From: Alkalilimnicola ehrlichii MLHE-1
GTDB lineage: Bacteria > Pseudomonadota > Gammaproteobacteria > Nitrococcales > Halorhodospiraceae
Assembly: GCF_000014785.1 (NCBI RefSeq)
Contig: NC_008340.1
Location: forward strand, 2,430,001-2,462,000
DNA: 32,000 nt
Direction of reading: 5' to 3'
The notes beneath the pieces are model-generated. The model was not told the DNA's origin. It saw nothing but the letters and a program-made list of their open reading frames with translations, and did not search any database. Each line of letters begins with the position of its first letter. Positions within the stretch are counted from its first letter, which is position 1. The translations under genes were made by a program, and so were the position numbers. Shown here piece after piece: positions 9,266 through 30,356 of this stretch.

Positions 9266-9278
9266 GCCTTCTGTAACG

Positions 9279-9313
9279 AAAAACCCCTGCCAGGGCCTTG
9301 GCCCGGACAGGGG
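9279..9313 (-). terminator. Rho-independent terminator of the GG-leader peptide gene (may also stop the convergent SDR transcript)
   Basis: On the minus strand the sequence reads CCCCTGTCCGGGCC-AA-GGCCCTGGCAGGGG. This is a 14-nt-arm stem with 2 mismatches at 9284-9313, followed by TTTTT (9283-9279). It begins 43 nt after the peptide stop codon. Confidence 0.7.
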
Positions 9314-9355
9314 TGCGATCACTGCGTGCCCGTTCAGGCACTGATCAGTGGGCGC

Positions 9356-9532
9356 TTACAGCAGGCCGCCGAGCAGCGGGCCCACGGCACCCAGAACGGT
9401 GCCCAGCAGGCCGTCCACGATACCCGAAACGGCACCCAGCAGCTCGAGCACGCCGCTAACCTGGAGGTCCAGGCTCACGCCGGCACCGCCCACTACCGCA
9501 TCCATCTCCACGTTGGTCAGTTCACGGAACAT
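9356..9532 (-). CDS. Double-glycine-leader peptide precursor (bacteriocin/microcin-like, 58 aa); absent from the supplied ORF track
   Basis: Hand translation of the minus strand gives ATG 9532-9530 ... TAA 9358-9356: MFRELTNVEMDAVVGG/AGVSLDLQVSGVLELLGAVSGIVDGLLGTVLGAVGPLLGGLL. A perfect AAGGAG SD (9544-9539) lies 6 nt upstream. A terminator lies downstream. The leader has L-12, E-8, M-7, V-4, G-2, G-1. A C39 peptidase gene lies 5.8 kb away. Confidence 0.8.
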   Translation of the reverse strand: MFRELTNVEMDAVVGGAGVSLDLQVSGVLELLGAVSGIVDGLLGTVLGAVGPLLGGLL

Positions 9533-9771
9533 AATCGACTCCTTGACTTTGCCTATGGCAGAAATAATTGCCAGCCTTCAGCCAGCGAATTCGATCCTAC
9601 GCCCAGAAACAAGAAGCAGCCAATCATTAAATTCAACTATTACTATTGGGCGAATCCTTCCACCCTGATTAGCTGATATCATTCTGCGGGAATGGACTCA
9701 TTGGCATAAGCCTTACCAAGCATATATCACGAATGGATAATCCGGCAAATACTTAGCGAAATAGATGGTTA
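9533..9771. promoter_or_regulatory. AT-rich divergent control region between the peptide gene and the TolC-MFP-MacB operon
   Basis: Hand counts of lines 9601-9660, 9661-9720 and 9721-9780 give 40%, 47% and 35% G+C, against clearly GC-rich flanks. The candidate plus-strand promoter is TTGGCA (9701-9706), 16 nt, TATATC (9723-9728). The candidate minus-strand promoter is TTGGCT (9623-9618), 18 nt, TAGGAT (9599-9594). An inverted repeat TGGCA-N8-TGCCA lies at 9556-9573. Confidence 0.5.
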
Positions 9772-11190
9772 ATGAACCAACTACCCAAGAGTCGCCCAAT
9801 GACAAAGACCTGGCTTACCGTTCTGATGATCGTCGTCATGGGCATTGCCCCCACAGCAACCATGGCCGACGAGGACCGCCACTCCGCCCCCAACCGCGAA
9901 CTGGATCTGCGCTCCGCCATCGGCAAGGCGTTGCAGCTCCATCCAAGCATCCGCACCGGCGAGGCCCACATTGACCGGGCCCAGGCGCGCCTGGATCAGG
10001 CCGAATCCCTGTATTATCCCCATTTTTCCGCATCCAGCCGGATCGAAAGGCTGACCCTCAACACCGCCCGGCCCGATTCAGCCCGCGCAGTACTCGACTT
10101 CAACGGTGTGGAAATCGAGACCAAGGACCCGGATACCAGCATGTCGGGCTTCACCCGCTACGGGGCGGCCCTGCAGGCAGAATACATGCTCTACGATTTC
10201 GGCCGCCGGCAGCACGGAAAACGCGCCGCCGAGTCCCATTTGGGCACGGAACAGGCCCGGCTGAATGACATCACCTCCAGCACCGTCTTCAATGTGACTC
10301 AAGCTTATTTCGATGTCCTTAGGTTCCAGAACGCGCTGCGGATCCAGGAGGAATTCCTGGAACGCCGGCAGGAGAACCTGGACCTCGCCCGGCGCATGCA
10401 CCGGGCCGGGCGGGTAACGCGGGGTGACGTCATCAAGGCCGAGGCGGAACGCGCCCGAGCCCGTCTCGAGGTCACCCGCGCCGGCCACGACCTGGAGGCC
10501 AGCAGGGTGCGACTGCGCACCGCCATGGGACTGGATGAGGCGGGCTGGGCGTTCTCGGTCGTCGAAGGGGCTCAACTGACGCCACCGCAGGAACTCGGCA
10601 GGCGGGACGCCACCCACCGGGTGATCGAAGACCACCCCCGGCTACAGGCCGAACGCCAGTTCCTCCGGGCCCACCACGAGGAGCTGGAACAGGTGAAGGC
10701 GGACCGGCGCCCGGAGATCCGGCTCACCGGCAATTACCGCGTCGATGAGTTCCATTCCGGACCGGGCTCGGAACCAAACTATACCGTGGGGGTGCAGTTG
10801 GAGTGGCGCTTCTTTGACGGCGGCCAGCGCCGGGCGCGCGCCGCCGAGGCGCGCGCGGAGATGATGGCGGCCGCTGAACGGCAACGCGAGGCACGCCGCG
10901 ATGTCCTGACGGAACTGCACAACGCACAGCGTGAACTCACCGAGGCCGAGGAACGGATAGAGCTCAGCAAGACGTTGATCCGGGCGGCGGAGCAGGACCT
11001 GCGCAGCGCCACCATCGGCTACCGCGAAGGCATCCGCGCATTCTCCGACCTCTCCGACGCCGCCCTAGATCTGCGGGAGGCCGAATTGGAACTGGCCCTG
11101 GCCGAGTTCGATCGCCAGCAGGCTGTGATCGGTATCTACTGGGCCATGGGCCGGGCATCACTGGAACGGCTGACGGAGGCCGGCTTGTAA
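9772..11190 (+). CDS. TolC-family outer-membrane efflux protein
   Basis: Signal peptide ...MTKTWLTVLMIVVMGIAPTATMA. There are two OEP-type repeats rich in coiled-coil A/R/E/L sequence (...AQARLDQAESLYYPHFSASS..., ...ERQFLRAHHEELEQVKADRRPEIRLTGNY...). It is the first gene of the operon. The start is ATG 9772 or ATG 9799. Confidence 0.85.
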   Translation: MNQLPKSRPMTKTWLTVLMIVVMGIAPTATMADEDRHSAPNRELDLRSAIGKALQLHPSIRTGEAHIDRAQARLDQAESLYYPHFSASSRIERLTLNTARPDSARAVLDFNGVEIETKDPDTSMSGFTRYGAALQAEYMLYDFGRRQHGKRAAESHLGTEQARLNDITSSTVFNVTQAYFDVLRFQNALRIQEEFLERRQENLDLARRMHRAGRVTRGDVIKAEAERARARLEVTRAGHDLEASRVRLRTAMGLDEAGWAFSVVEGAQLTPPQELGRRDATHRVIEDHPRLQAERQFLRAHHEELEQVKADRRPEIRLTGNYRVDEFHSGPGSEPNYTVGVQLEWRFFDGGQRRARAAEARAEMMAAAERQREARRDVLTELHNAQRELTEAEERIELSKTLIRAAEQDLRSATIGYREGIRAFSDLSDAALDLREAELELALAEFDRQQAVIGIYWAMGRASLERLTEAGL

Positions 11191-11192
11191 TT

Positions 11193-12446
11193 ATGAGCCA
11201 ATCGCAACAACCCGATGGCGAAGACCGCTTGCAATCCCTCCAGCGTTCGCTGGATAACGCACTGGCACGTTGGCACGGGCTCAGCTTCCGGCGGCGGACC
11301 GCGATTGTCGCGGCCGTGCTGTTCGGCGGATTGCTCCTTGCCCTGCTGACCAGCGGCGGGCGATCACTGCCGGACGGCGTGGCGGCGGCCCCTATCGAAC
11401 CGCGGCCCCTCAATATGGAGGTGCGCGCCCAGGGCACCCTGCGCGCCCACCGGCAGATGAACGTCTACCCCCGGGTGGCGGGCACCGTGGTCGACATCGC
11501 CGCGGAGGCCGCGGAGGCCAACGGCCGGGTGAGCCGGGGCGAGGCCATCGTCACCCTGGACGACGAGGACATCCGCATTGAGGTGGAGGACGCGGAGGCC
11601 GCGCTCTGGGGGGCCAAGGCCGAGCTGGCCTCGGCGCTAGGGCGGTACCAGCGCGCCATCCAACAGCGGGACCGGGCCGAGCGGCTGTATCGGGAGGATC
11701 TGATCCCCAGGGACGAACGCGACCAGGAGCGGGCCCACTACGAGGACATGCGGGCTGCCCTGGAAACCGCCCGTGCCCATGTCCGCCAGGCAGAGATCCG
11801 CCTGGAGCAGGCACGGGACAACCTGCAGCACACCGAGGTCCGCAGCCCCATCGACGGCCGCGTGCTCAATATCGCCGCCGAACTGGGCGACCGGGTCGCC
11901 CCCGGCGGCCAGACACCGGTGTTCACCGTGGCGGCCGGCCTCGAGCCGATGGAGCTCCGGCTCGAGGTCAACGAAGCCGACATCGGCAAGATCCGAGCCG
12001 GGCAGCGCATCCGTTTCAACGTGGAGGCCTACCGCCAGGAGGACTTCCATGCCGAGGTCCGGCGCGTCCTGCCGGGCGGTTACGAGCGCCGCGGGGTCCA
12101 GGTCTACGAGGTGCGGGCCGACGCCGAAAATCCGCACCACCGCCTGATGCCGGGCATGAGTGTGCAGGCACGCATCCATATCGAACAAACCGAGCCCCGC
12201 CCGGCCATCCCTCTGCGGGCCCTGGTCTTTGAGCCGGAATCCGAACGCCTCCTGGACCCGCACCGGGACACCCTCCGCGCCTTGCGGGATGAGGGCCGGA
12301 GCATCATCTGGATCCAGGACCGGTCCGGGGAGATTCGCCCGGCGGGCGTCGAACTGGGCGAGCAGGACGACGAGTATGCGGTCCTGCGGGATACCCCCTG
12401 GTCCGACGACGACGCTGACGGTATTCGAGTCCTCTTCTACGAGTGA
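11193..12446 (+). CDS. Membrane-fusion (periplasmic adaptor) protein, MacA/HlyD_D23-like
   Basis: Single N-terminal TM (TAIVAAVLFGGLLLALL). Lipoyl half-motifs are present (VSRGEAIVTLDDED ... VRSPIDGRVLNI), flanking a long coiled-coil hairpin. A beta-barrel and membrane-proximal region follow. Confidence 0.85.
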   Translation: MSQSQQPDGEDRLQSLQRSLDNALARWHGLSFRRRTAIVAAVLFGGLLLALLTSGGRSLPDGVAAAPIEPRPLNMEVRAQGTLRAHRQMNVYPRVAGTVVDIAAEAAEANGRVSRGEAIVTLDDEDIRIEVEDAEAALWGAKAELASALGRYQRAIQQRDRAERLYREDLIPRDERDQERAHYEDMRAALETARAHVRQAEIRLEQARDNLQHTEVRSPIDGRVLNIAAELGDRVAPGGQTPVFTVAAGLEPMELRLEVNEADIGKIRAGQRIRFNVEAYRQEDFHAEVRRVLPGGYERRGVQVYEVRADAENPHHRLMPGMSVQARIHIEQTEPRPAIPLRALVFEPESERLLDPHRDTLRALRDEGRSIIWIQDRSGEIRPAGVELGEQDDEYAVLRDTPWSDDDADGIRVLFYE

Positions 12447-12455
12447 AGTGCCACC

Positions 12456-13193
12456 ATGTCTATCGTTCTCGAACTCGCTCACGTGGCCAAGAGCTTCTCA
12501 GTGGGGGGCCATCGGGTCTCGCCCTTGATTGATGCGAATCTGGTGGTCCGGCGCGGCGATCTGGTCTCCATCGTGGGGCCGTCCGGCTCCGGGAAATCCA
12601 CCCTACTTCACGTGCTCGGTTGCCTGGAGCGGCCGGACCAGGGCGAGGTCTATATCCGGGGCCGGCCCACCCGCGATCTCTCCGATGAGGAGCTGTCCGC
12701 CTTTCGCGGCAAGACCCTGGGTTTCGTATTCCAGCGCTTCTACCTCATCGACCGGATGACGGCCCTGCAGAACGTGGCCATGCCGTTGGAATACCGTGAT
12801 GATCTGACCCGTGAGGAGGCCTGGGCCCGGGCCTGGGAGAGCCTGGAACGCGTCGGCCTGGCCGAGCACGCCCACCACCGCCCCCGGCAGCTCTCGGGCG
12901 GTCAGCAACAGCGGGTGGCCATCGCCCGGGCGTTGGCCTCCCATCCGACGGTGCTGCTGCTGGACGAGCCCACCGGCAACCTGGACCCGGACACCGGCCG
13001 CAGCATCATGCGGATCATCCACGAACTGCGCCAGGTCATCCCGGAGATGGCGGTCATCCTGGTCACCCACGACATGGCGCTCGCCGCAGACGCTGAGATC
13101 GCCTACGAGCTCCACCGCGGTCGGCTCCACCGGGTGCACTGGGACCAGGCGGGGCCTGGCGTGCAGACAATCAGCGCATCCTGTCCGGCATGA
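12456..13193 (+). CDS. MacB/LolD-type ABC transporter ATP-binding protein
   Basis: Walker A GPSGSGKST. The family-typical segment is LGFVFQRFYLIDRMTALQNVAMPL. Signature LSGGQQQRVAIARAL, Walker B LLLDEPTGNLD, H-loop VTHD. The stop overlaps the permease start (ATGA). Confidence 0.9.
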   Translation: MSIVLELAHVAKSFSVGGHRVSPLIDANLVVRRGDLVSIVGPSGSGKSTLLHVLGCLERPDQGEVYIRGRPTRDLSDEELSAFRGKTLGFVFQRFYLIDRMTALQNVAMPLEYRDDLTREEAWARAWESLERVGLAEHAHHRPRQLSGGQQQRVAIARALASHPTVLLLDEPTGNLDPDTGRSIMRIIHELRQVIPEMAVILVTHDMALAADAEIAYELHRGRLHRVHWDQAGPGVQTISASCPA

Positions 13194-14416
13194 GACTGCC
13201 CGTTTCCACCGCTTCGATCAGCAACGCCTTCGCCCTGCTGCGGGAGCACAAGGTGCGCTCCGGGCTGACGGTGCTCGGCATCGCCGTGGGGATCTGGGCA
13301 GTGGTGACCCTGCTGGCCATTGGCATGGGCGCACGGAGCTACATCGAGGGCCAGGTCCAGATCCTCGGCTCGGACCTGCTGGTGGTGACGCCCGGTTCCT
13401 CGGAGGACCCCACCAGCTTCTTCAACCCGGTGATCATGGAGAGCCTGACCCTGGCCGATGCCGAGCATTTCCGCAACCGGATCCCGGACGTCCACCGGGT
13501 GGCGGCCGTCTTTCAACTCAGCGGCGAACTCAGCGTGGCCGACAAGCGGGCGGCCGGCAGCGTGGTGGGCACAGAGCCCGACTATTTCGCCCTCCGGGAG
13601 CTGAGCGTGGACACCGGCCGGCTCCTCAACAGGGCGGATCAGCGCTCCGCGGCACCGGTTGCCGTCCTCGGTGCGGAGCTCGCCCAGCAATTGTTCGGCA
13701 ACCAACCGCCGCTGGGCGAGTCCATCCGTTTCCGCGGGCAACCGTTGGAGGTGGTCGGGGTGCTCAGCCAACGGGACGACGCGGCGCTGGGGCAGGGCGA
13801 GGACCGCAACCTCTTCGTCCCCATCCGGTATGCCCAGCGGGCCCTGGCTGGGGCCCACCACGTGGAATACATCATGGTGGAGCCCACCGGCCGTGAAACC
13901 AAGGACGCAGTGGCCCGCGCCATCGATCTGCACCTGATGACCCGCAAATCCCGGCTCAGCAATGCCGGCAAGACCCACACCGTGACCGACTTTGGCGAGA
14001 TCGCGACCCTGGCCGGAAGGATTGTCGACGCCATGACCTGGACCCTGGTCAGCATCGCCGGCGTCAGCCTGGTGGTCGGGGGGATCGGTGTGATGAACGT
14101 CATGCTGGCCTCGGTCAGCGAACGGGTCAGCGAGATCGGCATCCGGCGCGCGGTGGGGGCCAATGCCAACCAGATCCGGCTGCAGTTTCTCTCCGAGGCG
14201 GCCATGCTCACCGTGGTCGGGGGGGTGGTCGGGCTGTGCCTGGCCTTTATTTCCATCCTCCTCGCCAACCAGTTGCTGCCCTGGGAAGGGAGCCTGACGG
14301 TCACCTCGGTGCTGCTGGTCCTGCTCTTCTCAGCGAGTATTGGCGGCTTCTTCGGCTACTACCCGGCACGTAAAGCGGCGAACATGCCACCCATGGAGGC
14401 CTTGCGCTATGACTGA
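13190..14416 (+). CDS. MacB-type ABC permease (MacB periplasmic core domain plus FtsX 4-TM fold)
   Basis: TM1 is RSGLTVLGIAVGIWAVVTLLAIGMG. A periplasmic domain of about 220 aa follows, then three C-terminal TMs carrying the FtsX-family motif (GVMNVMLASVSERVSEIGIRRAVGA) and the tail YYPARKAANMPPMEALRYD. Confidence 0.88.
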   Translation: MRLPVSTASISNAFALLREHKVRSGLTVLGIAVGIWAVVTLLAIGMGARSYIEGQVQILGSDLLVVTPGSSEDPTSFFNPVIMESLTLADAEHFRNRIPDVHRVAAVFQLSGELSVADKRAAGSVVGTEPDYFALRELSVDTGRLLNRADQRSAAPVAVLGAELAQQLFGNQPPLGESIRFRGQPLEVVGVLSQRDDAALGQGEDRNLFVPIRYAQRALAGAHHVEYIMVEPTGRETKDAVARAIDLHLMTRKSRLSNAGKTHTVTDFGEIATLAGRIVDAMTWTLVSIAGVSLVVGGIGVMNVMLASVSERVSEIGIRRAVGANANQIRLQFLSEAAMLTVVGGVVGLCLAFISILLANQLLPWEGSLTVTSVLLVLLFSASIGGFFGYYPARKAANMPPMEALRYD

Positions 14417-14936
14417 AACGACCGCTCTTCATCTCCCTTCGGTCCCCCGGGCCGCGACAGGCCTGCTGCAGGGCGTCGTCACCGCACCGCGGACCACCCT
14501 GCGGCAACTCTCCGGCTCGTGGACCGAGTGGTCCGCGGCGCTCCTCATCCTGGCCGGGATCATCCTTCTGAACACCCTGATGGCCCTGGCCATGGGTCGC
14601 GAGGGGTTGGGGACGCAATTACTCTCCGGCGCGCAATCCGCAATCCTAGCCTCACTGGCCACGGCGACCGTGATATGGCTGCTGGTCCAGCTTCTTTGCG
14701 CCGTACGCATCGCTTGGCAGCGGGTGCATAGCGGGACCATTCTCATCATGATCCCGCTCATCCTCGGACCGGTACCCGTCCTTGGCCACCTCATGCTGCT
14801 GGCGTTTGCCGGGCTGATCGCCCTGGTGTTTCTGGATGTGGCGGAGCAACCTCGGAACCGCAGCCTGCTCCTCACCGGCCTGACCTGGGTGGCCCTGATT
14901 GCCCTGGCGTTGGTAGGCGCCCGGTTGTTCGGCTGA
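14409..14936 (+). CDS. 5-TM membrane protein, Yip1-like (candidate accessory/immunity component, YknW analogue)
   Basis: ATG 14409 overlaps the permease 3' end by 8 nt (ATGACTGA). There are about five hydrophobic helices. The N-terminal segment LLQGVVTAPRTTLRQL...WSAALLILAG resembles Yip1-domain proteins. The Yip1 call rests on topology and pattern only. Confidence 0.6.
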   Translation: MTETTALHLPSVPRAATGLLQGVVTAPRTTLRQLSGSWTEWSAALLILAGIILLNTLMALAMGREGLGTQLLSGAQSAILASLATATVIWLLVQLLCAVRIAWQRVHSGTILIMIPLILGPVPVLGHLMLLAFAGLIALVFLDVAEQPRNRSLLLTGLTWVALIALALVGARLFG

Positions 14937-14949
14937 AAAGGGCAGGCCA

Positions 14950-15260
14950 CCCCCACCGTCACTGCGAGGAGGCGAAGCCGACGGGGCAGTCGGCCGCCCT
15001 GGATCGCCACGGGCCTTCGGCCCTCGCGATGACGGGGGAAAGCCTCGGCCCTCTTGAAGCATTGGGCTGTGCCGGAAGCGGAAGGTCGCCCCCACCGTCA
15101 CTGCGAGGAGGCGAAGCCGACGCGGCAGTCTACCCCTCTGGATCGCCACGGGCCTTCGGCCCTCGCGATGACGGGGGGAAGAAAGCCTCGGCCCTCGCGA
15201 TGACGGGGGCAAGCCATTCGTCGGTGATTCGGGCCCGCGCAGGGGGGCTCGGGATGACGG
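14950..15260. repeat. REP/BIME-like mosaic of palindromic intergenic repeats (cluster B, inverted relative to cluster A)
   Basis: Two tandem copies of an 87-nt unit lie at 14950-15036 and 15090-15177. Each reads CCCCACCGTCACTGCGAGGAGGCGAAGCCGACG...GGATCGCCACGGGCCTTCGGCCCTCGCGATGACGGGG and is the reverse complement of 2903-2987. Bases 15021-15260 are collinear with the reverse complement of 2814-3056. Confidence 0.85.
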
Positions 15261-15305
15261 CTTATCCAGCCGTTGCCCAAAGGATTTTGTAAAGGAGGTG
15301 ACATC

Positions 15306-15866
15306 GTGACGCTGCTCAAACATCGGTCCTTCAACCGCGCGCAGGCCGGCCGGGATTTCAGCCGGGTCATTCCCCAGTCCCGCCCTGACTCCTGCGGTCT
15401 GGCCGCCCTGGCCACCCTGATGAATGAGGTCCTACACTTACCGACGAGCGAAGCCGCGCTGCAGGCGAGACTGAAACACCGCCGCCCCGCCAGCCTGACT
15501 GACCTGAGCAAGCTTAGTCGCCAGGCAGGCCTCAAGGCCCATGCCTACGCGGTCGACCTGGACCTGCTCCTTCGGGTGCAACGACCGGCCATACTGCATA
15601 TGGGGGCCTCGCGCCGGATCGGGCACTACGTGGTGGTCCGGGGGGTTGCGGACGACAAAGCGTGGCTCGCCGATCCCATGCGCGGCAACGTCCACCTGGA
15701 CCTGACCGCCCTCAAGAAACACTGGTACGTGCCTCGCAAACCCTTTGGTCACGTCCTTTACGTCGCCGGAGCGGACGAGGAATGGTTACCCCTGAACGAG
15801 GAGCACCTTCCGGGCAGCCCGCCGGAAACGGTCAGCGACTGGTTCCCCCCGCCGGCCGGACGTTAG
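15306..15866 (+). CDS. Free-standing C39-family cysteine peptidase (bacteriocin double-glycine leader peptidase domain only)
   Basis: AAGGAGG (15292-15298) lies 7 nt upstream of GTG 15306; the track start TTG 15273 has no SD. Motifs present: Q-x5-C (IPQSRPDSCGLAALATLMN), His (IGHYVVVRGV) and Asp (WLADP). Spacing is Cys30 to His107 77 aa and His107 to Asp123 16 aa, as in PCAT C39 domains. There is no TM segment, no signal peptide and no ABC domain. Confidence 0.8.
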   Translation: MTLLKHRSFNRAQAGRDFSRVIPQSRPDSCGLAALATLMNEVLHLPTSEAALQARLKHRRPASLTDLSKLSRQAGLKAHAYAVDLDLLLRVQRPAILHMGASRRIGHYVVVRGVADDKAWLADPMRGNVHLDLTALKKHWYVPRKPFGHVLYVAGADEEWLPLNEEHLPGSPPETVSDWFPPPAGR

Positions 15867-15965: not shown

Positions 15966-16760
15966 TCAGCCGGAGGATTCCTCCAGCAAGCCGTGGCGGT
16001 TCGCCAGCAGGGCCAGTTGGGTCCGGTTGGAGACCCCGGTCAGGGCGAGGACCTGCGACACGTAAAGCTTGACCGTGTTCTCCGAGATCTGCAGGTGGTT
16101 GGCAATCTGGTAATTGCTGTGCCCCTTGGCGATCAGCTCGGTCACCTCGCGTTGCCGCTTGGTCAGCCGGGCGAAGCCTTCCACCAGCCCGCCCTGGACG
16201 CCCTCCTTCCCGCGGGTTGCCTGACCACCGCGCTGCCCCATAACGCTGCCCTTGATCTCCTCAAGGTCACTGGCCATGGTGCTCACCGAGGTCGCCACGG
16301 AATCGAGTTTCACCCCGATTTCGCCCCCGCCGCGGATTTCGCTCCGGCGATTGACCCGCTCAACCAGTTTTTCGACACATCGGGCCAGCTGGTCCAGATT
16401 GACCGGCTTTTGCAGGTATTCCCGGACACCACTGCGCAGCGCCGCAATGGCGTTGCTATGGGAGCCGTGGCCCGTCAATACCGCCACCTCGAACACCCGG
16501 TCGGCCTCAAACGAATCGATGAGCCAGCCAGCGAACGTAATCCCGTCCTCGCCCGGCATCTTGATATCGGTGATCACCACCTTGATGTCTTTACGCTCGA
16601 AGAACTTTTTCCGCGCCTCATCCGCTGAGGTCGCGCTCTCGCAATCGTAACCGAGCTCGGAGAGATATTCGACGATCTCCTCGACGATATACTTTTCATC
16701 ATCGACCACCAGAACCGCCACCGGTTCGGAGTGACTGTCTTCTCTTTGCATCACATCCAC
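15966..16760 (-). CDS. Two-component response regulator, REC plus LuxR/FixJ-type HTH (PprB-like position)
   Basis: REC residues are intact (VVDDE, ITDIKMPGEDG, LTGHG, LQKP). The C-terminal HTH is LTKRQREVTELIAKGHSNYQIANHLQISENTVKLYVSQVL. An unusually long G/S-rich linker of about 60 aa joins them. GTG 16760 has AGGTG 5 nt upstream; an alternative ATG lies at 16751. Confidence 0.88.
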   Translation of the reverse strand: MDVMQREDSHSEPVAVLVVDDEKYIVEEIVEYLSELGYDCESATSADEARKKFFERKDIKVVITDIKMPGEDGITFAGWLIDSFEADRVFEVAVLTGHGSHSNAIAALRSGVREYLQKPVNLDQLARCVEKLVERVNRRSEIRGGGEIGVKLDSVATSVSTMASDLEEIKGSVMGQRGGQATRGKEGVQGGLVEGFARLTKRQREVTELIAKGHSNYQIANHLQISENTVKLYVSQVLALTGVSNRTQLALLANRHGLLEESSG

Positions 16761-19816: not shown

Positions 19817-20341
19817 TTAGAACTCTATACGGGTGCTGGCCTCCAGTGTCTCCGGCAACTGCGGGACAGCCCCGATTCCCGGAAACACCAGCGGCACGAC
19901 AAACGGCGCAGCCTGGTAATCATACGCCACCCGAACCGAAAGGACGTCTCCGGTCAGGGTGACCTCCACGTCGAAATCTCCGGGTGCCAGGGCCGTAAGG
20001 ACCGACTCCGACAGCAGGTCATTGGTGGCCTGTTTCGAATGCCCAATAACCGCATCCGGATAGGTGTCATATTGGCCGAAATCCGTCCGGGAGGGATCGA
20101 CCCGCAAGCCCACCCGCGCCCCTTCGGCCACTGCCATATTCATCTGTTGCACCAACAGCATCGGAAAGGTGTAGGAGACAATCGCGTAGAACACCGTGAA
20201 AAAGAGCAGGAAGACCAGGGCGAACTCTATGGCCGCCGCGCCGCGCTGCCTCCTGTTGCCACCCATCTGCACGCCCATGATTCGCCTTTTTCGCCACCAC
20301 GATGCGGACCGGGATCGCCTTGACACTGGATTCACCGTCAT
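19817..20341 (-). CDS. tadE: TadE/TadF-like pseudopilin (TadE domain)
   Basis: The TadE N-terminal motif is RRQRGAAAIEFALVFLLFFTVFYAIVSY. ATG 20341 makes an ATGA overlap with the tadG stop. Internal ATGs at 20278 and 20266 are alternative starts. Confidence 0.8.
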   Translation of the reverse strand: MTVNPVSRRSRSASWWRKRRIMGVQMGGNRRQRGAAAIEFALVFLLFFTVFYAIVSYTFPMLLVQQMNMAVAEGARVGLRVDPSRTDFGQYDTYPDAVIGHSKQATNDLLSESVLTALAPGDFDVEVTLTGDVLSVRVAYDYQAAPFVVPLVFPGIGAVPQLPETLEASTRIEF

Positions 20342-22149
20342 CGGACCAGATCGACGCCGCCCTCAAGCAGCTCCACCACTTGGACGTCTAACCCTCCCAC
20401 GCCAACGCCAAGCATGCTCAGCAGCGGCTCCAGAATGACGCTCCCTAATAGCTGCAGCACGAGGGGTAATACCAGGCTCAGCAAGATCGCAACCACTTCA
20501 TTAACCAGCGCTTCCACCACGGCCGTGGTCAGTCCCAGCAACGTTGCGAGCACTCCCAAATCCTCGACCAGGGTGATCTCCACATCGATACTCTCGCCCA
20601 AGGTCTGTAACCCGTTCGCCAGTGCTCCGCCCAAGCCGCTGGCGACGGATTGCACCTCTGTAGGCAACGCCGCCCGGTCCTCAACCAGGAAATGAAGCGT
20701 TTCGCCGGCAGCAGGCTGAATCGGCGCGTTCGCAGCGAGCGCCAGGGTGGCAATGTGAATCCCCAAGGCCCTCACCTCGACCGCCACCGGTAACACCGAC
20801 GGGTCGGAGACAGCGATGTCATCAAACTCCCCCAGCTCCAGATTAGCAACCCCGGGCAGAGTGCCGACCGCCACCTCCGTGGCCCCGGGGGTGTCCGGAG
20901 GACAGCCAACCCCCTCAACCCAGGCGCTCCCTTGCGCCGCCTGCAGCGCCACCCCCAGGTCGACGTCGACCGCTGCGATACCCACATTCAATGATAGGTC
21001 CGCGGCGGCCTGGAGGCGCACCTGCGCGGTATCCACAATGGTCCGCCACTCCCCGTCGGGGCCCCGGCCGGGCGGGCCGATGACAATCTGCGGCGGCTCG
21101 ACAATCGTGGCCTTAACCCGGGCGTCAACATCTACCAGGTTCAGCAGATTCAGATCACTCAGTGGCAGGAGAACATCAAGCTCCACGGCGTGGTCCCGGG
21201 TTGCGGTCATCGCCGTGGTCATGATCAGGTCCAGCACATTGACTTGGGCGTCCAGGGCTGCGTCCGGATCCATGGAGGGGGCCTGGACCTGGAGGATGTC
21301 GGCAAGCTGCAGCTCCAGGTTTTCCACCCCGATGTTCAGGAGCTGGTTGCGCAGGACCGAGGCGTTCACGTCGAGGACACCCTCCCGTTCCACCGCCCGG
21401 ACGGCTGCCTCCAGCACATCCAGCAAACGCACATTTGCGGACAGCAGCTCATCGACCGTCGCGACACTGAGATCCACCCCCAGTACCGCCAGGTCCTGAG
21501 CCAACTGGAGCAGCGTCACTGAGGTATCCACCAGGCCGGCGAAGGCCACCGCGTCCAACTGCAGGTTGGTCCCCAGCAGACCGTTAAGCAGGGCATTGAG
21601 CAGGGGGGAGTTCTCGGTGTCCACCCGCGCGGCCCAGGAGCCGGCGGAGATCCCCACCAGCGGCATGCGCCGGGCCACCGCCTCGGCGCTCAGGGTGGCC
21701 TGCTGGCCAAACAGCCCCCCGAGGACCAAGCTCTGCGGCACCTCGTGCTCCACGTGCACCCGCGCCGCCTCCGGCACCACCCCGTGATGGCCTACATCCG
21801 GCATGGTCTCGAACACCCGGAGGACGCCGTCCTCCACCAGACGGCCCAGCAACAGCCCCTGCGCTCCTATGACGAGGTCATCACCCTGGTAGCCGTTGCG
21901 CTCCGCCACCGCCTGCGCCGTCTGTAGCGCCGATGCAGGATCCGCCGTGCAGCCGGTATGCTTCCAGGCCGTTTCCAGGGCCGTCGCATCGGCGATCCGC
22001 TGCAGGTTCCGCTGCTCCATATAGAGCCGGCCGGCATCCAGAGCCAGGGCCAGGAACACGACCACCACCACCAGCAGGAGGACCGCCGCCAGGCCGATCG
22101 CACCCCGCTGCCGCCCCGGACCGATTCCCTGTCCTTGCAGTCTCACCAT
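20338..22149 (-). CDS. tadG: TadG-like Flp pilus assembly protein (603 aa)
   Basis: ATG 22149 has AGGAG upstream. The TadG/Tad N-terminal domain pattern is GRQRGAIGLAAVLLLVVVVVFLALALDAGRLYMEQRNLQRIADATALE. The gene sits between the tadD/DUF3613 genes and tadE. The first 63 codons of the track ORF overlap the upstream gene and are R/P-rich. Confidence 0.75.
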   Translation of the reverse strand: MVRLQGQGIGPGRQRGAIGLAAVLLLVVVVVFLALALDAGRLYMEQRNLQRIADATALETAWKHTGCTADPASALQTAQAVAERNGYQGDDLVIGAQGLLLGRLVEDGVLRVFETMPDVGHHGVVPEAARVHVEHEVPQSLVLGGLFGQQATLSAEAVARRMPLVGISAGSWAARVDTENSPLLNALLNGLLGTNLQLDAVAFAGLVDTSVTLLQLAQDLAVLGVDLSVATVDELLSANVRLLDVLEAAVRAVEREGVLDVNASVLRNQLLNIGVENLELQLADILQVQAPSMDPDAALDAQVNVLDLIMTTAMTATRDHAVELDVLLPLSDLNLLNLVDVDARVKATIVEPPQIVIGPPGRGPDGEWRTIVDTAQVRLQAAADLSLNVGIAAVDVDLGVALQAAQGSAWVEGVGCPPDTPGATEVAVGTLPGVANLELGEFDDIAVSDPSVLPVAVEVRALGIHIATLALAANAPIQPAAGETLHFLVEDRAALPTEVQSVASGLGGALANGLQTLGESIDVEITLVEDLGVLATLLGLTTAVVEALVNEVVAILLSLVLPLVLQLLGSVILEPLLSMLGVGVGGLDVQVVELLEGGVDLVR

Positions 22150-22177
22150 CAGGCTCCTGCGCGGGCGCCCGCGCCTT

Positions 22178-22495
22178 TTAGTCGACCCCGAAGGAGTCGC
22201 GGTCGAAATAGGTTTCGGGGATCGGGTGGGTGAAGCTGTCCAGATAACGCCGCAACGCACGGGTGCGGGCCGCCTCCGGCAGGCCCTGCACATAGGTCGA
22301 GGCCTGGTCACCGTCCCGCTGCAGCGCCAGCCAGGCACGGGTCTGCTCCCCCGCCCGTTCCGGGGACGACCGGACGGCCGACTCCGCTTCCTCCGCCGCC
22401 CCGTCGGCCAGTACCGGACCGGTTAGGAACAGCACCAGCACCGCCGGCCAGCACCAACGCCATCGCGGCTGTTCATTGACTCGCTGTGACATCAT
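22178..22495 (-). CDS. Small secreted Tad-locus protein (DUF3613-like)
   Basis: Signal peptide WRWCWPAVLVLFLTGPVLA. The pattern TRAWLALQRDGDQAS...RRYLDSFTHPIPETY resembles DUF3613 proteins, which I recall as Tad-locus associated. The family assignment is from memory. Confidence 0.6.
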   Translation of the reverse strand: MMSQRVNEQPRWRWCWPAVLVLFLTGPVLADGAAEEAESAVRSSPERAGEQTRAWLALQRDGDQASTYVQGLPEAARTRALRRYLDSFTHPIPETYFDRDSFGVD

Positions 22496-22510
22496 GCAAG
22501 ACCTCGCTGA

Positions 22511-23272
22511 TCAATCGGAAGGCAACCCCAAGTCCGGGGCTTCGGATACGCCTTGGACCGGTTCCGTCACCCGCTCGCCCCGTTGCGCCCGGGCCCGCGC
22601 CTGCTCCAGGCGCGGCAGGCGCTCGTTGAGCCGGGCCACCAGGGTCTGGTCCACGTCGTAACGCTGCAGCAACGCATTCAGCCGGGGGATGTTGTCCTGG
22701 CTGAGATAGAGCAGCATCAGGTTTTCCAGTGGCTGCTCATGCCCCTCGCTCAACTCCAGGGCGCTGCGCAGCTCGAACTCCGCCTCGCTGTCCCGGCCCA
22801 GCATCAGGAGCACGAAGCCGTAGTCGTTGCGTACCTGGGCCACCCGGGGCAGATCGCGCCGGGCGGCGGCCAGTGCCTCGGCCGCGCGCGCATAATCGCC
22901 CTCCCGGATGGCCAGCACCCCCAGGCCATGGCGGGCCGCCCCCCGGAGGCAGGCGTCGTTCTCGACGGCGTGGAAATGGTCCCGCGCCTCCGCCCGCCCC
23001 ATCTGGCTGAGGATCTGCGCCTTGGCCAGCCGGATCTCGGCCGACCCGCCGCCCAGGCCATCCAGGTGTGCGAGGGCGGCATAGGCCTGCCCCCGGGCCA
23101 TCAGCTGCTCCGCCTCCTCCATGGCCATGCGCTGCTCCGGGTCCAGGTCGGACCGGCATTCGCCCGCCCCGGGGCGGGCGTCGTCCGCGTTCGGGCCCAG
23201 CGCCGCACAGCCGGAGAGCAGCAGCGCCGCCCCCAGCCCTGTGAGCCATTGTCGAAAGTCAGTCACCCACAC
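22511..23272 (-). CDS. tadD: TPR-repeat lipoprotein TadD
   Basis: The lipobox LLLSGC follows a hydrophobic leader. TPR-like A/L/G-rich repeats follow. The gene lies immediately downstream of tadC. The GTG start overlaps the tadC end. Confidence 0.8.
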   Translation of the reverse strand: MWVTDFRQWLTGLGAALLLSGCAALGPNADDARPGAGECRSDLDPEQRMAMEEAEQLMARGQAYAALAHLDGLGGGSAEIRLAKAQILSQMGRAEARDHFHAVENDACLRGAARHGLGVLAIREGDYARAAEALAAARRDLPRVAQVRNDYGFVLLMLGRDSEAEFELRSALELSEGHEQPLENLMLLYLSQDNIPRLNALLQRYDVDQTLVARLNERLPRLEQARARAQRGERVTEPVQGVSEAPDLGLPSD

Positions 23273-24197
23273 CTCCCAGGGCCCCTACCAGACTGATGAG
23301 CCCGGGCGCTGCCAGGACGACCAGCAGGGCGGGGAAGAGAAACAGCATCATCACCACGCTCATCTTGGCCGACATCTTGGTGACCTTCTCCTGGGTCCGG
23401 GTACGCTGCCGGTCGTTGATCAACTCCGCCAGCCGGGTCAGCGGCTCATCCACATTGCCGCCCTGCTCCACCACCTGCTTCAAGATCAACACCGTATCGT
23501 CCAGCTCCGGTACCTCCAGGTCCCGGGCCAGGCCATCGAGCACCTCCACCAGACCCTCACCACTCCGGGCCCGGTTCAGGGCCAGGTCGAGCTCCCGGCT
23601 CAGGTCCGGCATCAGCTCCCGGCCCTCCACCGCCACCATGCCCAGGGCATGCTGCACCGACTGGCCGGAATCCAGCAGCATGCGCAGGATCTGCACGGCC
23701 GTCGTCACCTGTTCACCGATGCGCATCTGGCGCGCCGAGGCGAGACCGGCCACCACCCGCTTGGGCAGGAACAGCGCGGCCAGGCCCAGCAACGCCAGCA
23801 GTCCGACATCCTCACCGGTCAAGGCCCCGCGGCTGATCCAGACAAAGCCCAGCCCGCCGGCCACCACCACCCAGGGCAGCGCCTGGACCAGCAGGGCCAC
23901 CGCCGCCCGGTCTCCGGCCCGCCGCAGACCCCACTGCCGAAGGCGGCGCGCCAAGACCGGGTCCTGCGCGAGGGCTGGGGCGGCCCCGCGTCCGGCCGCC
24001 AACCGGCGCCAGAGGGTGTGCGCGCCGGATCGCCCGTCCACCGGTTCATCCCAATCCCGCCCGCCGCCCCGGGCGGTGCCCATCAGCCGGCCCTCCACAC
24101 GGCCGTACTCCTGTGAGCGGCGCCACAGGGGCCAGACCACCAAGGCCAACCCGGCCGCGAACAACACCAGGGAGGCAACGAACAGCCAGACCATCAT
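23259..24197 (-). CDS. tadC: TadC (type II secretion system F-family inner-membrane platform protein)
   Basis: T2SSF-type topology with an N-terminal TM and a C-terminal TM pair (MSAKMSVVMMLFLFPALLVVLAAPGLI). A soluble helical domain lies between them (...LDSGQSVQHALGMVA...). It is the second of two paralogous genes after tadA. Confidence 0.82.
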   Translation of the reverse strand: MMVWLFVASLVLFAAGLALVVWPLWRRSQEYGRVEGRLMGTARGGGRDWDEPVDGRSGAHTLWRRLAAGRGAAPALAQDPVLARRLRQWGLRRAGDRAAVALLVQALPWVVVAGGLGFVWISRGALTGEDVGLLALLGLAALFLPKRVVAGLASARQMRIGEQVTTAVQILRMLLDSGQSVQHALGMVAVEGRELMPDLSRELDLALNRARSGEGLVEVLDGLARDLEVPELDDTVLILKQVVEQGGNVDEPLTRLAELINDRQRTRTQEKVTKMSAKMSVVMMLFLFPALLVVLAAPGLISLVGALGGVGD

Positions 24198-24213
24198 GCC
24201 GGCGCTCCCCCTG

Positions 24214-25098
24214 TCATAACGATTTCACCATGCGCCAGATCAAGAAGATGCCAAGCACTTGCCAGGCCATGGCCCCACCCAGCAGCCAGACGCCCACGGT
24301 GGATTCCAGCATGGTCGCGTAGTAGTCCGGGTTCATCATCACCGTGTAACCCCCGACCCCCACCGGCAGTATGGCCAGAACGCCAGCGCTGATACGGGTC
24401 TCGCCGGTCATTGCCTTCAGTTCCCGGCGGGCACGCTCCCGTTGGCGCAGCAGAGTGACCACCTGCTCCATCAACTGGATGGCGCTGCCGCCGTAGCGCA
24501 GGTTGATACGGACGCCGATGGCCACCAGCTGCAGGGCGTCCACCCGGTAGATATCGGCGGCCCCCTGCAGGGCATCGCTGAGGCTTGCACCCATATCCAC
24601 CTCCCGCTGGACCCGCTGCATGACCTCGGCCACCGGCGGGCGCATCTCCCGGGTGGCGGCCGCCACCGCCACCGACAGGGTGCGCCCGGCCTGCAGGCTG
24701 CGGATGATGTGCTCGACGAAGCCGGGCAACTGGGCCTCCATCGCCCGGAGCCGCCGCTGGCCGCGCCAGTAGACCACCAGGTAGGCCGCCGCCAGGGCAA
24801 TCAGGAGGCTGACGACCCCGCCCCGGGCCCCGGCGATATACACCCCCGCCAGACCGACCAACAGCAGCACCGCCAGGGCAACGTAAAGGCCGCTGATCCG
24901 GCCGGAGAACCCGGCCCGCATCAGGAAACGGGTCAATACCCCCCGTCGCGGTAGGCTCCGGGGGGCCGCCACGAACTCATCGATCCGCTCATCGACGGTC
25001 TCCAGGTCCCGCCTCCGGCTGGCGAGGTACAGCAGCACACTCCCGGTCGCCGCCAGACCGAGGGCCAGCACCAGCAGGATGTAACGCTCCGCTACCAT
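24214..25098 (-). CDS. tadB: TadB (type II secretion system F-family inner-membrane platform protein)
   Basis: T2SSF-type pattern (...LPGFVEHIIRSLQAGRTLSVAVAAA...RELKAMTGETRISAGVLAILPV...). It lies directly downstream of tadA. Confidence 0.82.
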   Translation of the reverse strand: MVAERYILLVLALGLAATGSVLLYLASRRRDLETVDERIDEFVAAPRSLPRRGVLTRFLMRAGFSGRISGLYVALAVLLLVGLAGVYIAGARGGVVSLLIALAAAYLVVYWRGQRRLRAMEAQLPGFVEHIIRSLQAGRTLSVAVAAATREMRPPVAEVMQRVQREVDMGASLSDALQGAADIYRVDALQLVAIGVRINLRYGGSAIQLMEQVVTLLRQRERARRELKAMTGETRISAGVLAILPVGVGGYTVMMNPDYYATMLESTVGVWLLGGAMAWQVLGIFLIWRMVKSL

Positions 25099-25107
25099 GA
25101 CCGGGCC

Positions 25108-26424
25108 TCACTCATGCCGGGTGCGTGGGGCTGCCCACCGGGTCCCCACCCGGGGGCCTTCCCGCCGGGCGGGGGCGTTGAGGGCCTGAAGCTTCGGGTT
25201 GGAGACCGGGTCGTCCCTGCGCACAAACTGTCCGCTCTCCGCGTCCCGTTCATACAGGACCGTGGTGACGAAGTTACCGTCCCGCACCGTCACCAGCTCC
25301 CGCACCTCGCTGATACAGCGGGTTCCGTCCCTGAGCCGGACCAACTGGACGATCAGGTCTACGGCGGCGCCGATCATGCGGCGCACCGTGACCTCAGACA
25401 TCTGCCGCCCCGCCATGCCGAACAGCATCTCCATACGCAGCAGCGCATCGGTGGCGTTGTTGGCGTGCACCGTGGACATGGAGCCGTCGTGGCCGGTGTT
25501 CATTGCCTGCATCACCTCGACCACCTCATCGCCGCGCACCTCACCGAGGATGATGCGGTCCGGGCGCATGCGCAGGGCGTTCTTGACCAGGTCCCGGGCG
25601 GTGATCTCCCCATAGCCCTCGACGTTGGGCGGCCGGGTCTCCAGCCGAACCACGTGGCTATGGTGAAGCTGCAACTCGGCGGTGTCCTCAATGGTGACAA
25701 TGCGCTCCGTCGCACCCACATAGCCGCTCATGACATTGAGCAGCGTGGTCTTCCCGGTGCTCGTCCCGCCGCTGATGAGGATGTTGGCGCGCTGCTCCAC
25801 CGCGTTGCGCAGGAAGGCCAACAGGCCCTCGTCCAGCGTCTTGTAGGCGATCAGGTCATTGCCCCGCAGGGGGTCCGCGGCGAACTTGCGGATGGAGACG
25901 CAGGGGCCGTCCAGCGCCACCGGTGGGATCACCGCGTTGACCCGGCTGCCGTCTGGGAGACGGCCGTCGACCATCGGGCTGGCCTCGTCCAACCGCCGGC
26001 CCAGGGGGGCGAGGATCCGGTCGATGACCCGCTTGACGTGGTCGTCGTCGATGAATCGGTGGTCGGTCTCGAACAGCTTGCCGTCGCGCTCCACGATGAT
26101 GTGCTCGGGACCGTTCACCAACACCTCGGAGATCGAGGGGTCGGCCAGCAGGGTCTGCAGCGGCCCGAGGCCGCAGAGCTCATCGGCGATGTCCTCCGCG
26201 AGCCGGTCCAGGTCCTGGCGGCTGACGGCCAGCCGGTGGCTGGCCACGTACCCGCCCACCTTCTCGCGGACGTATTCCAGGATGGCGGGCCGCACCCAGG
26301 TGGCTAGGTCGACCCCGTCCTCCTCAATGGCGTCGATGAGATACCGGTGCAGCCGCAGTTTGAGGTTCTGCTCATCGGCTTTCTGCCGCAGCGCGATGCG
26401 CTTGCCGTACATCCCCACTTTCAT
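25108..26424 (-). CDS. tadA: TadA/CpaF secretion ATPase
   Basis: Walker A ISGGTSTGKTTLLN, Asp/His boxes (IVTIEDTAELQL, LRMRPDRIILGEVRG, NTGHDGSMSTVHAN). ATG 26424 shares one base with the tadZ stop (TGATG); the track start is GTG 26427. Confidence 0.92.
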   Translation of the reverse strand: MKVGMYGKRIALRQKADEQNLKLRLHRYLIDAIEEDGVDLATWVRPAILEYVREKVGGYVASHRLAVSRQDLDRLAEDIADELCGLGPLQTLLADPSISEVLVNGPEHIIVERDGKLFETDHRFIDDDHVKRVIDRILAPLGRRLDEASPMVDGRLPDGSRVNAVIPPVALDGPCVSIRKFAADPLRGNDLIAYKTLDEGLLAFLRNAVEQRANILISGGTSTGKTTLLNVMSGYVGATERIVTIEDTAELQLHHSHVVRLETRPPNVEGYGEITARDLVKNALRMRPDRIILGEVRGDEVVEVMQAMNTGHDGSMSTVHANNATDALLRMEMLFGMAGRQMSEVTVRRMIGAAVDLIVQLVRLRDGTRCISEVRELVTVRDGNFVTTVLYERDAESGQFVRRDDPVSNPKLQALNAPARREGPRVGTRWAAPRTRHE

Positions 26425-28920: not shown

Positions 28921-28945
28921 GCGCACCGTTTCGCCCCCAATTGGT

Positions 28946-29896: not shown

Positions 29897-30170
29897 AGCG
29901 CCTAACTATCCCCCCAAGGCAGAAACGGATGACCGCCCGACCACCGGAGGCGGCAAGACCAAACGAATAGTAATCATGACGGCCGCAGGGTTTATTGGCA
30001 ATACAAGAAGGGACTAGTTCTATTCTACGCATTGACTCGGTCGACACAAAACCGATGCGGGCACTGCCCAATTTCACCCCACGAGCACATAATAATAGTA
30101 ATTGTGGAAAAACCCGCGGCTTGCTAAGCTTTCTATATAGTCTCACCCATCCCTGCCGGAGAACGTACCG
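29897..30170. promoter_or_regulatory. Divergent control region between the rcpC operon and flp-tadV
   Basis: A 274-nt non-coding gap separates the divergent operons. G+C is visibly lower (hand counts about 47-48% for lines 30001-30120), and there is an A/T block, CATAATAATAGTAATTG. No specific promoter motif was assigned confidently. Confidence 0.5.
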
Positions 30171-30356
30171 ATGAAGAAGTTCCTGCTAAAGCTGTGGAAA
30201 GACGAAGAGGGCGCCTCCGCCATCGAGTATGCCCTGATTGCGGCGATGGTGGCGGTTGCCCTTGTGGCGTTCGTCGGGCCGGTCCGCGACGCGATCACCG
30301 GCATTTTTAACGACATCCTCAATGCCTTGACCGGTGCCAACGGCAATGGCGATTAA
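30171..30356 (+). CDS. flp: Flp-family type IVb pilin
   Basis: The 61-aa prepilin carries the Flp motif: leader MKKFLLKLWKDEEG / ASAIEYALIAAMVAVALV, i.e. G/xxxxEY followed by a hydrophobic helix. GGAGA lies 9 nt upstream of the ATG. Confidence 0.92.
   Translation: MKKFLLKLWKDEEGASAIEYALIAAMVAVALVAFVGPVRDAITGIFNDILNALTGANGNGD

Follow-up and report, generated by a model that had tools for sequence, protein, structure and literature searches.

The question raised by this locus is whether a short open reading frame (ORF) on the minus strand, at 9532..9356 of a 32,000-nucleotide stretch of Alkalilimnicola ehrlichii MLHE-1 DNA (this whole stretch is called the window below), encodes a secreted peptide, and by which route such a peptide would leave the cell. 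From sequence comparisons, we propose that it is probably the gene for an unmodified precursor resembling microcins and class II bacteriocins, which would be processed and exported in a non-canonical way by a C39 cysteine peptidase and a MacB-type pump encoded beside it. An initial annotation of the window, made from its letters, had described a 58-codon gene with a double-glycine leader at this position.

The 58-codon gene and its expression signals

The minus-strand translation of 9532..9356 yielded a product of 58 amino acids (aa), MFRELTNVEMDAVVGGAGVSLDLQVSGVLELLGAVSGIVDGLLGTVLGAVGPLLGGLL, identical to the hand translation of the initial annotation. The idea that automated annotation had missed the gene did not hold, since the product has an entry in RefSeq (WP_198003225.1 / XQT85620.1; A. 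ehrlichii MLHE-1, "hypothetical protein"). The gene is uncharacterised, not unannotated. The gene and its signals are located as follows:

9623..9594, minus: putative sigma-70 promoter, with -35 TTGGCT (9623..9618), an 18-nt spacer and -10 TAGGAT (9599..9594)
9586..9570, minus: hairpin GCUGGCU-GAA-GGCUGGC in the predicted 5' untranslated region (sequence scan and alignment)
9544..9539, minus: Shine-Dalgarno site (AAGGAG), separated from the ATG by 6 nt
9532..9356, minus: 58-codon precursor gene (translation, substitution ratio, third-position periodicity, GC by codon position, RefSeq listing)
9532..9485, minus: leader codons 1-16, MFRELTNVEMDAVVGG
9484..9359, minus: 42-aa core
9358..9356, minus: stop codon TAA
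9314..9279, minus: intrinsic terminator made of a GC-rich hairpin (9+4 bp, 9314..9283) and then T5 (9283..9279), 41 nt past the stop

A related Alkalilimnicola-like contig (L001) carried a 58-aa orthologue with 91% identity, next to neighbouring proteins 73-93% identical to those of the window. Disruption of the frame in relatives that keep the flanking genes had been named as a sign against the gene; in L001 the ORF was intact, and the ratio of non-synonymous to synonymous substitution rates (dN/dS) was 0.12. The third codon position accounted for 20 of the 26 nucleotide differences. This periodicity was confined to 9356-9532 and ended at the minus-strand ATG, upstream of which the differences were split 9/5/10. 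The GC content by codon position was 0.81/0.39/0.80 in the peptide gene and about 0.7/0.45/0.8 in the neighbouring genes. It is because of this comparative evidence (dN/dS, position-3 bias, limits of the periodicity), and not because of the leader motif, that the reality of the gene goes beyond chance, and the pattern indicates a genuine gene under purifying selection.

Could the ORF be spurious, its conservation being due to the plus-strand ORF 9348..9668 or to a non-coding element? The antisense frame, which shares its third-codon positions, showed an equally low dN/dS of 0.11. The leader motif could also have arisen by chance: in its strict form (the signal expression given in the next section, with hydrophobic residues at -4/-7/-12), it matched one of the 880 candidate starts in the window, and at least one match was present in 24% of random 32-kb windows of matched composition, so that the motif by itself is not beyond chance. 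However, the periodicity ended at the minus-strand ATG although the plus-strand ORF runs to 9668, the GC content of that ORF by codon position (0.42/0.69/0.63) was not gene-like, and its product was of low complexity, rich in Pro, Ser, Thr and Arg. The Shine-Dalgarno site, the ATG and the terminator were all on the minus strand, and homologues of the peptide were found beside C39 exporters in an unrelated bacterial class. We regard a spurious ORF as hardly credible. Both plus-strand ORFs, 9326..9676 and 9348..9668, were rejected as real genes on the limits of the periodicity, their codon-position GC and their low-complexity products. The statement that the two are antisense in the same triplet phase was correct for 9326..9676 but not for 9348..9668.

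The expression signals named in the initial annotation were all recovered. The AAGGAG, 6 nt 5' of the ATG, was kept in 4/4 homologous upstream regions, and the intergenic segment 9533-9798 contained 43.6% GC as compared with 67% for the window. Four upstream regions, that of the window gene, that of L001 and those of the two peptide genes of A. ehrlichii strain CP184336 (L013), shared the pattern TT[GT][GA]C[TC]-18-TAG[GC]AT in register. This sigma-70 promoter is putative: it was assigned from the alignment of the four upstream regions, and its score of 8/12 was under the threshold of the promoter scan. A sigma-54 promoter in CTGGCAATTATTTCTGC was rejected, the GG-to-GC spacing being off by one and varying among copies. 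The 87-nt 3' region (9356..9270) folded at -45.4 kcal/mol (z = -4.75), the stem-loop and T5 terminator being the second of two predicted stem-loops. The hairpin and T-run were kept in L001 with pairing-preserving changes and were identical in L013. These signals point to a monocistronic unit of its own, as first described, with a conserved inferred promoter, a Shine-Dalgarno site and a terminator.

L001 and L013 copy 1 retained the hairpin of the predicted 5' untranslated region, and in the most diverged copy, L013 copy 2, its U-G and G-U pairs were changed to C-G and G-C. It could act as a regulatory element at the RNA level or as an operator; Rfam gave no match in the window, this hairpin included.

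Leader, core and relatives of the peptide

The first 16 residues (MFRELTNVEMDAVVGG, then A at +1) carry F-15, L-12, E-8, M-7, V-4 and G-2/G-1, in agreement with the double-glycine leader of the initial annotation (hydrophobic residues at -12, -7 and -4, Glu at -8, Gly-Gly at -2/-1). They fit exactly the class II microcin signal expression M..Rx[IL]x9G[GAS] (PMC12219008). They also match, by V-4, M-7, L-12 and F-15, the ComA/LahT rule of hydrophobic residues at -15/-12/-7/-4 and cleavage at GG, GA or GS (PMC10885120). The segment reads as a canonical double-glycine leader, for which cleavage is predicted after Gly16. The N-terminus is not hydrophobic and shows no Sec signal.

The predicted core (42 aa, 3,914 Da) is very hydrophobic, with a grand average of hydropathy (GRAVY) of +1.48, and has a net charge of -3. 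It contains 10 Gly, 12 Leu and four GxxxG motifs, and no Cys, basic or aromatic residue. AlphaFold2, run on a 7-sequence alignment, produced a single long helix at residues 7-55, with a moderate predicted local distance difference test (pLDDT) score of 74. A lanthipeptide or another modified peptide was rejected, as the core has no Cys and no modifying enzyme is encoded between 8594 and 19336; the weak matches of lantibiotic models to the peptide covered the leader only. The best Pfam match was PF10439 (Bacteriocin_IIc), over residues 1-56 (E 0.012). PF10439 is indeed the nearest family, as the initial annotation expected for this type of model, but the score of 16.0 bits is below the gathering cut-off of 27.1.

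An exhaustive phmmer search of 1.84e9 (1.84 billion) representative proteins returned four matches under the E cut-off. One of them (P0007), a 1,460-aa repeat protein matched on composition, was spurious. The others were the L001 orthologue (P0001) and two peptides of 56 aa with 50-56% identity and leaders ending VVGA|G (P0008 and P0009), which are encoded by tandem genes at the same chromosomal site of strain CP184336. A profile search added three peptides of 68-76 aa from Methylovirgula-type Alphaproteobacteria (P0011-13; hhalign probability 97%), with leaders of the form ..IRELTxSELDEVSGG| and cores ending GLLGTVLGAVGGL. The known family is made of three Alkalilimnicola alleles and three Methylovirgula-type peptides. 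Among the relatives, P0011 and P0012 scored 23.0 and 22.6 bits with PF10439, and the MccV Pfam model matched the Methylovirgula-type relatives alone, weakly (E 0.1).

[quoted passage not shown] On independent grounds, this association links the peptide type with C39-dependent export in a lineage that is unrelated. Small ORFs beside exporters, which the initial annotation suggested looking for in other genomes, were thus found in L001, in L013 and in the Methylovirgula-type loci, but the exporter of the last is a PCAT and not a MacB-type pump. In loci L015-L022 the Methylovirgula-type peptide lies between the adaptor-PCAT pair and scpB, and the peptide-exporter pair stands beside scpAB in several metagenomes. 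A metagenome scan with a 4-peptide alignment found one Methylovirgula-type locus only and nothing new, and tblastn searches of the plasmid collection, with the peptide and with the 175-aa membrane protein described below, gave no matches.

The divergent operon and its variation between strains

Six genes (9799-15866) form an operon divergent from the peptide gene and encode a channel, an adaptor, an ATPase, a permease, a 175-aa membrane protein and a C39 peptidase. Two regulatory genes follow on the opposite strand:

9799..11190, plus: TolC-family outer-membrane channel, 463 aa, first gene of the operon, signal peptide (hydrophobic N-terminus; Pfam OEP, E 1.9e-55)
11193..12446, plus: MacA-like periplasmic adaptor (membrane fusion protein), N-terminal anchor at residues 34-57 (Pfam HlyD_D23, HlyD_3)
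12456..13193, plus: ABC ATPase of MacB/LolD/DevA type (Pfam ABC_tran, E 5.6e-34; top NCBIfam matches LolD, MacB, DevA)
13190..14416, plus: MacB-type permease (Pfam MacB_PCD, E 5.4e-44; FtsX, E 5.5e-18)
14409..14936, plus: 175-aa membrane protein with 4-5 membrane helices by hydropathy, weakly Yip1/YknW-like
15306..15866, plus: stand-alone C39 cysteine peptidase, 186 aa, GTG start (Pfam PF03412, E 3.7e-21)
15966..16751, minus: LuxR/FixJ-type response regulator (Pfam Response_reg, GerE), syntenic in L001 and L013
16832..19336, minus: PAS histidine kinase (Pfam PAS_3, HisKA, HATPase_c)

The channel matched the NCBIfam TolC subfamily below the cut-off; the adaptor reached 144 bits with RND_mfp, above the cut-off, and E 3.5e-30 with MacA. 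By hydropathy, the permease consists of one membrane helix, a periplasmic core domain and three FtsX membrane helices. A complete MacB-type (type VII) ABC tripartite pump is thus encoded beside the peptide gene. The neighbouring transporter mentioned in the initial annotation is not a PCAT: the pump is of MacB/FtsX type, with a separate ATPase and a separate, signal-less C39 protein. Yip1 was the top Pfam match, over the full length, for 3/3 orthologues of the 175-aa protein, with E values of 0.022-0.47, far below the cut-off. This protein is a weak candidate for a fourth pump subunit or an immunity factor.

The C39 peptidase gene announced 5.8 kb from the peptide gene was present at that distance. 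Its product has no signal peptide or membrane segment (maximum hydropathy 0.98). The closest solved relative is LahT150 (6mpz), to whose Gln, Cys, His and Asp motifs the residues Gln23, Cys29, His107 and Asp123 align; we take these motifs to be the catalytic residues, and the active site is predicted to be intact. Since neither the C39 protein nor the peptide has a Sec signal, processing should be cytoplasmic, as in a PCAT. A word-indexed protein search with the C39 sequence recovered the Alkalilimnicola orthologues and distant secreted C39s, and nothing else. A genome scan with a C39 alignment gave six distant loci, of which the two checked with Pfam (L009, L010) had unrelated contexts. The spacer between the gene of the 175-aa protein and the C39 gene (14932-15215) is filled by a 139-nt tandem repeat resembling repetitive extragenic palindromes, with the core TCGGCCCTCGCGATGACGGGGG present three times, which creates spurious ORFs on both strands. 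In L001 this spacer takes up only 25 nt, as against about 400 nt in L013.

The comparison of the window with strain CP184336 (L013 1-10276) showed a sharp change of identity. The flank on one side (adh_short, a 172-aa ORF, SRAP) was 99.9-100% identical at the DNA level. The breakpoint was located at about 9315, just upstream of the terminator hairpin, and the module beyond it was 74-87% identical in nucleotide sequence. The protein identities between the window and CP184336 were:

Peptide: 50-53%
175-aa membrane protein: 73%
C39 peptidase: 75%
Outer-membrane channel: 79%
Adaptor: 87%
ATPase: 90%
Response regulator: 91%
Permease: 94%

In CP184336 the single peptide gene is replaced by two different tandem paralogues. 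Between alleles, the leader was kept at 11-13 of its 16 residues and the core fell to 43% identity. The outer-membrane channel and the C39 peptidase co-varied with the peptide type, the window grouping with L001. Peptide, pump, C39 and regulator together behave as one allelic cassette. Conservation of the leader, variability of the core, duplication and cassette replacement within a species are typical of loci involved in competition, for instance those of bacteriocins. Competition of strain against strain is thus the likely ecological role: at this chromosomal site, a conspecific has two different peptide genes in tandem, together with a module that has diverged. That peptide and module are replaced like a cassette among soda-lake strains of one species also suggests that bacteriocins mediate intraspecific competition in an extremophile.

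The same observations bear on another function, in which the processed peptide would be a structural or surface-active product (a pump modulator, a biofilm or amyloid-like matrix peptide, a surfactant) and the C39 would act as in Fap/Fil-type systems. The top NCBIfam matches of the C39 were FapD and FilB, though far below the cut-off (42 bits vs 330 for FapD), the core combines acidity and a high Gly content with extreme hydrophobicity, a Tad pilus cluster lies right beside the locus, and the distant relatives show no evident immunity gene. Yet FapD and the hemocin peptidase HmcC are periplasmic, with Sec signals on enzyme and substrate, neither of which is found here. Moreover, the core has no Asn/Gln-rich amyloid repeats, and a diversified core behind a conserved leader, in a module replaced like a cassette, is typical of competition or recognition loci, not of structural proteins. 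A structural role is improbable.

The response regulator, which had diverged like the module and not like the flank, is part of the variable module and a candidate regulator. The histidine kinase showed one marginal hydrophobic window only, without the paired membrane-spanning segments of an extracytoplasmic sensor, and is probably cytoplasmic; its link to the peptide system is uncertain. The initial annotation had included ComC-type pheromones among the possible products, and a ComC/BlpC-like quorum-sensing peptide sensed by this kinase and the LuxR-type regulator would account for the two-component system being syntenic with the module in 3/3 versions and diverging with it; double-glycine leaders also serve pheromones. 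This reading is very improbable, as the PAS kinase has no extracytoplasmic sensor loop, in CP184336 an insertion sequence has cut the kinase short, with two peptide genes still present, and a 42-aa core as acidic and extremely hydrophobic as this one is unlike known peptide pheromones.

For the bacteriocin-like precursor that we favour, we propose the following route. The soluble C39 peptidase would cleave the leader after Gly16 in the cytoplasm. The released 42-aa helix, acidic, very hydrophobic and GxxxG-rich, would then partition into the inner membrane, from which, or from the periplasm, the four-component MacB-type pump would take it and expel it through the TolC-like channel. The pump would serve export and self-protection together. 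In Bacillus subtilis, YknWXYZ is a four-component MacB-type pump acting against the 42-aa SDP toxin (PMC4887032; PMC8277102), and DdGHIJ and As-48EFGH contribute to both export and resistance for hydrophobic bacteriocins (PMC9865063). It is possible, with somewhat less than even chances, that this locus represents a PCAT-independent secretion of double-glycine peptides, made of a cytoplasmic C39, membrane entry by the peptide itself or with the help of the Yip1-like protein, and a "mechanotransmission" pump of the MacB type with a TolC-like channel. With the same tentativeness, such a route may be a split and evolutionarily independent replacement of the CvaAB-type exporter, in a peptide family that uses PCATs elsewhere.

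Several points weigh against the proposed precursor and its export. MacB-family pumps take their substrates from the periplasm and not across the inner membrane (PMC8277102); because they are considered to be periplasm-loading only, the passage of the cleaved peptide through the inner membrane is the weak point, and how a leader-cleaved hydrophobic peptide would reach such a pump is the mechanistic question raised. The predicted core, at ~3.9 kDa, is smaller than class II microcins, of 5-10 kDa (PMC12219008), and no Pfam or NCBIfam model, whether of bacteriocins or not, matched the peptide above its curated cut-off. The similarity among Gly/Leu/Val-rich peptides may be inflated by composition. 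The architecture of peptide, C39 and MacB-type pump was found in Alkalilimnicola only, in searches of proteins, genomes, metagenomes and plasmids. The window locus shows no clear dedicated immunity gene, the sole candidate being the 175-aa membrane protein, which does not co-vary with the peptide type, and the 377-nt and 57-nt spacers of the Methylovirgula-type loci hold no immunity-like ORF.

The loading of MacB pumps from the periplasm alone is also the reason for the main rival, in which the product is a double-glycine bacteriocin and the MacB-type pump confers self-immunity only, the transfer across the inner membrane being ensured by a PCAT or another system encoded elsewhere in the genome, or by spontaneous insertion. 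YknWXYZ is protective and not biosynthetic (PMC4887032), and DdGHIJ aids resistance while a separate channel, DdEF, is the primary exporter (PMC9865063). In the present case, however, the locus has its own C39 without a fused transporter, which argues for a self-contained system, and the one further ABC exporter seen in the part of the genome that was covered (L024) shows no C39 match on record and has an adaptor of AprE type. We consider a pump restricted to immunity unlikely, and retain the combined processing and export by C39 and pump as the probable function.

An AprE/HlyD-type adaptor of type I secretion runs off the window end (31026-32000, minus); in L024 (4185-7650) it measures 427 aa and is followed by a 729-aa ABC transporter. 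This second exporter, apparently of RTX type, lies 21 kb from the peptide gene. The ABC transporter is disfavoured as the true exporter of the peptide, no C39 Pfam match being on record for it. Between the histidine kinase and this adaptor, a complete Tad/Flp pilus locus covers 19817-30856 and encodes TadE, a TadG-like protein, a TPR protein, TadC, TadB, TadA, TadZ, a secretin and RcpC. Its Flp pilin gene (30171-30356, plus) is below the length cut-off and encodes 61 aa with a G/ASAIEY processing site; it is followed by an A24 prepilin peptidase gene (30356-30856). The 58-aa peptide was rejected as a Flp-type pilin of this locus, which has its own pilin and A24 peptidase. In L013, a DDE transposase truncates the histidine kinase and the Tad locus is no longer adjacent. 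PADLOC found nothing relevant.

Comparison with known systems

The C39 of the locus is a separate protein and not a transporter domain, like FapD of the Pseudomonas functional amyloid and the peptidase of the hemocin system (HmcD-C39-ATPase-HmcA-HmcI). These are the closest stand-alone C39s found elsewhere, and both are periplasmic: FapD carries a Sec signal (PMC5557850), and the hemocin C39, encoded by Avibacterium plasmid p250, came first among the tblastn matches to the plasmid collection (28% identity) and is associated with an ...EVKGG| cleavage motif. In these systems peptidase and substrate carry Sec signals, cleavage is periplasmic and export uses an outer-membrane barrel, whereas the present system has no Sec signal and a MacB-type pump. 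At the hemocin locus (L025, 1482-4290), the precursor has a Sec signal and then an internal ...LSQKEMSEVKGG| site, the C39 has a signal peptide of its own, and next to them are HmcD, which resembles an outer-membrane barrel, and a small ATPase. Tistrella plasmid pTM2 (L026) has a comparable set of three, a small protein with an outer-membrane barrel and a C39.

The pump itself recalls YknWXYZ of B. subtilis and As-48EFGH and DdGHIJ of Enterococcus, which also associate an adaptor, a separate ATPase, a MacB_PCD/FtsX permease and a small multi-pass protein. They are linked to hydrophobic bacteriocins or toxins of 40-70 aa and are documented in self-protection and export. They differ in that they belong to Gram-positive bacteria and lack an outer-membrane channel, and none of them has a C39 peptidase or carries a double-glycine cargo. 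The resemblance of the 175-aa protein to Yip1/YknW comes from the Pfam Yip1 model and is sub-threshold.

With the PF10439 family and with the GxxxG-rich two-peptide bacteriocins that Firmicutes produce (class IIb; lactobin A / cerein 7B type), the peptide shares the double-glycine leader, a Gly-rich, hydrophobic and helical core of 40-50 aa and the GxxxG motifs; one strain has a tandem version with two genes, and the match to this family was the best in Pfam and of full length. The differences are the scores of 16-23 bits vs 27.1, the Gram-negative producer, an acidic instead of a cationic core, and the other export machinery.

The class II microcins, such as MccV/CvaC with its CvaB-type PCAT, CvaA and TolC, also share features with the locus. 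The producer is Gram-negative (Gammaproteobacteria) and the peptide is ribosomal, apparently unmodified, Gly-rich, hydrophobic and acidic; the leader fits the signal expression, an adaptor and a TolC-family channel are encoded alongside, and the small gene is divergent. The likeness extends to the relatives P0011-13, which adjoin a true PCAT and an adaptor. In contrast, the locus itself has no PCAT, its ABC components being of MacB/FtsX type and its C39 a separate soluble protein; the outer-membrane channel is part of the operon, and there is no obvious small immunity gene. The likeness to class II microcins and bacteriocins noted in the initial annotation is thus supported for the leader, which is canonical, but the PCAT, a defining feature, is replaced by a MacB-type pump and a separate C39. 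The locus appears to resemble a class II microcin or bacteriocin system, from which it departs by the absence of a PCAT, a predicted core below 5 kDa and a score under the PF10439 cut-off, no clear immunity gene being apparent.

In full-text literature searches that paired C39, double-glycine, bacteriocin or microcin with MacB or FtsX, the only papers to come up were a general review and unrelated ones, none of them describing the combination. The exchange of the exporter, a MacB-type pump and a free C39 taking the place of the PCAT, would be the novel trait of this locus; it is a purely genomic observation, made so far in one genus. At present, it is the link to PCATs that serves to define class II microcins and double-glycine bacteriocins and to mine them from genomes. 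If the exchange is real, the mining pipelines based on PCATs miss part of the peptide repertoire, and the C39 would be a naturally stand-alone double-glycine protease, a potential tool for the removal of leaders.

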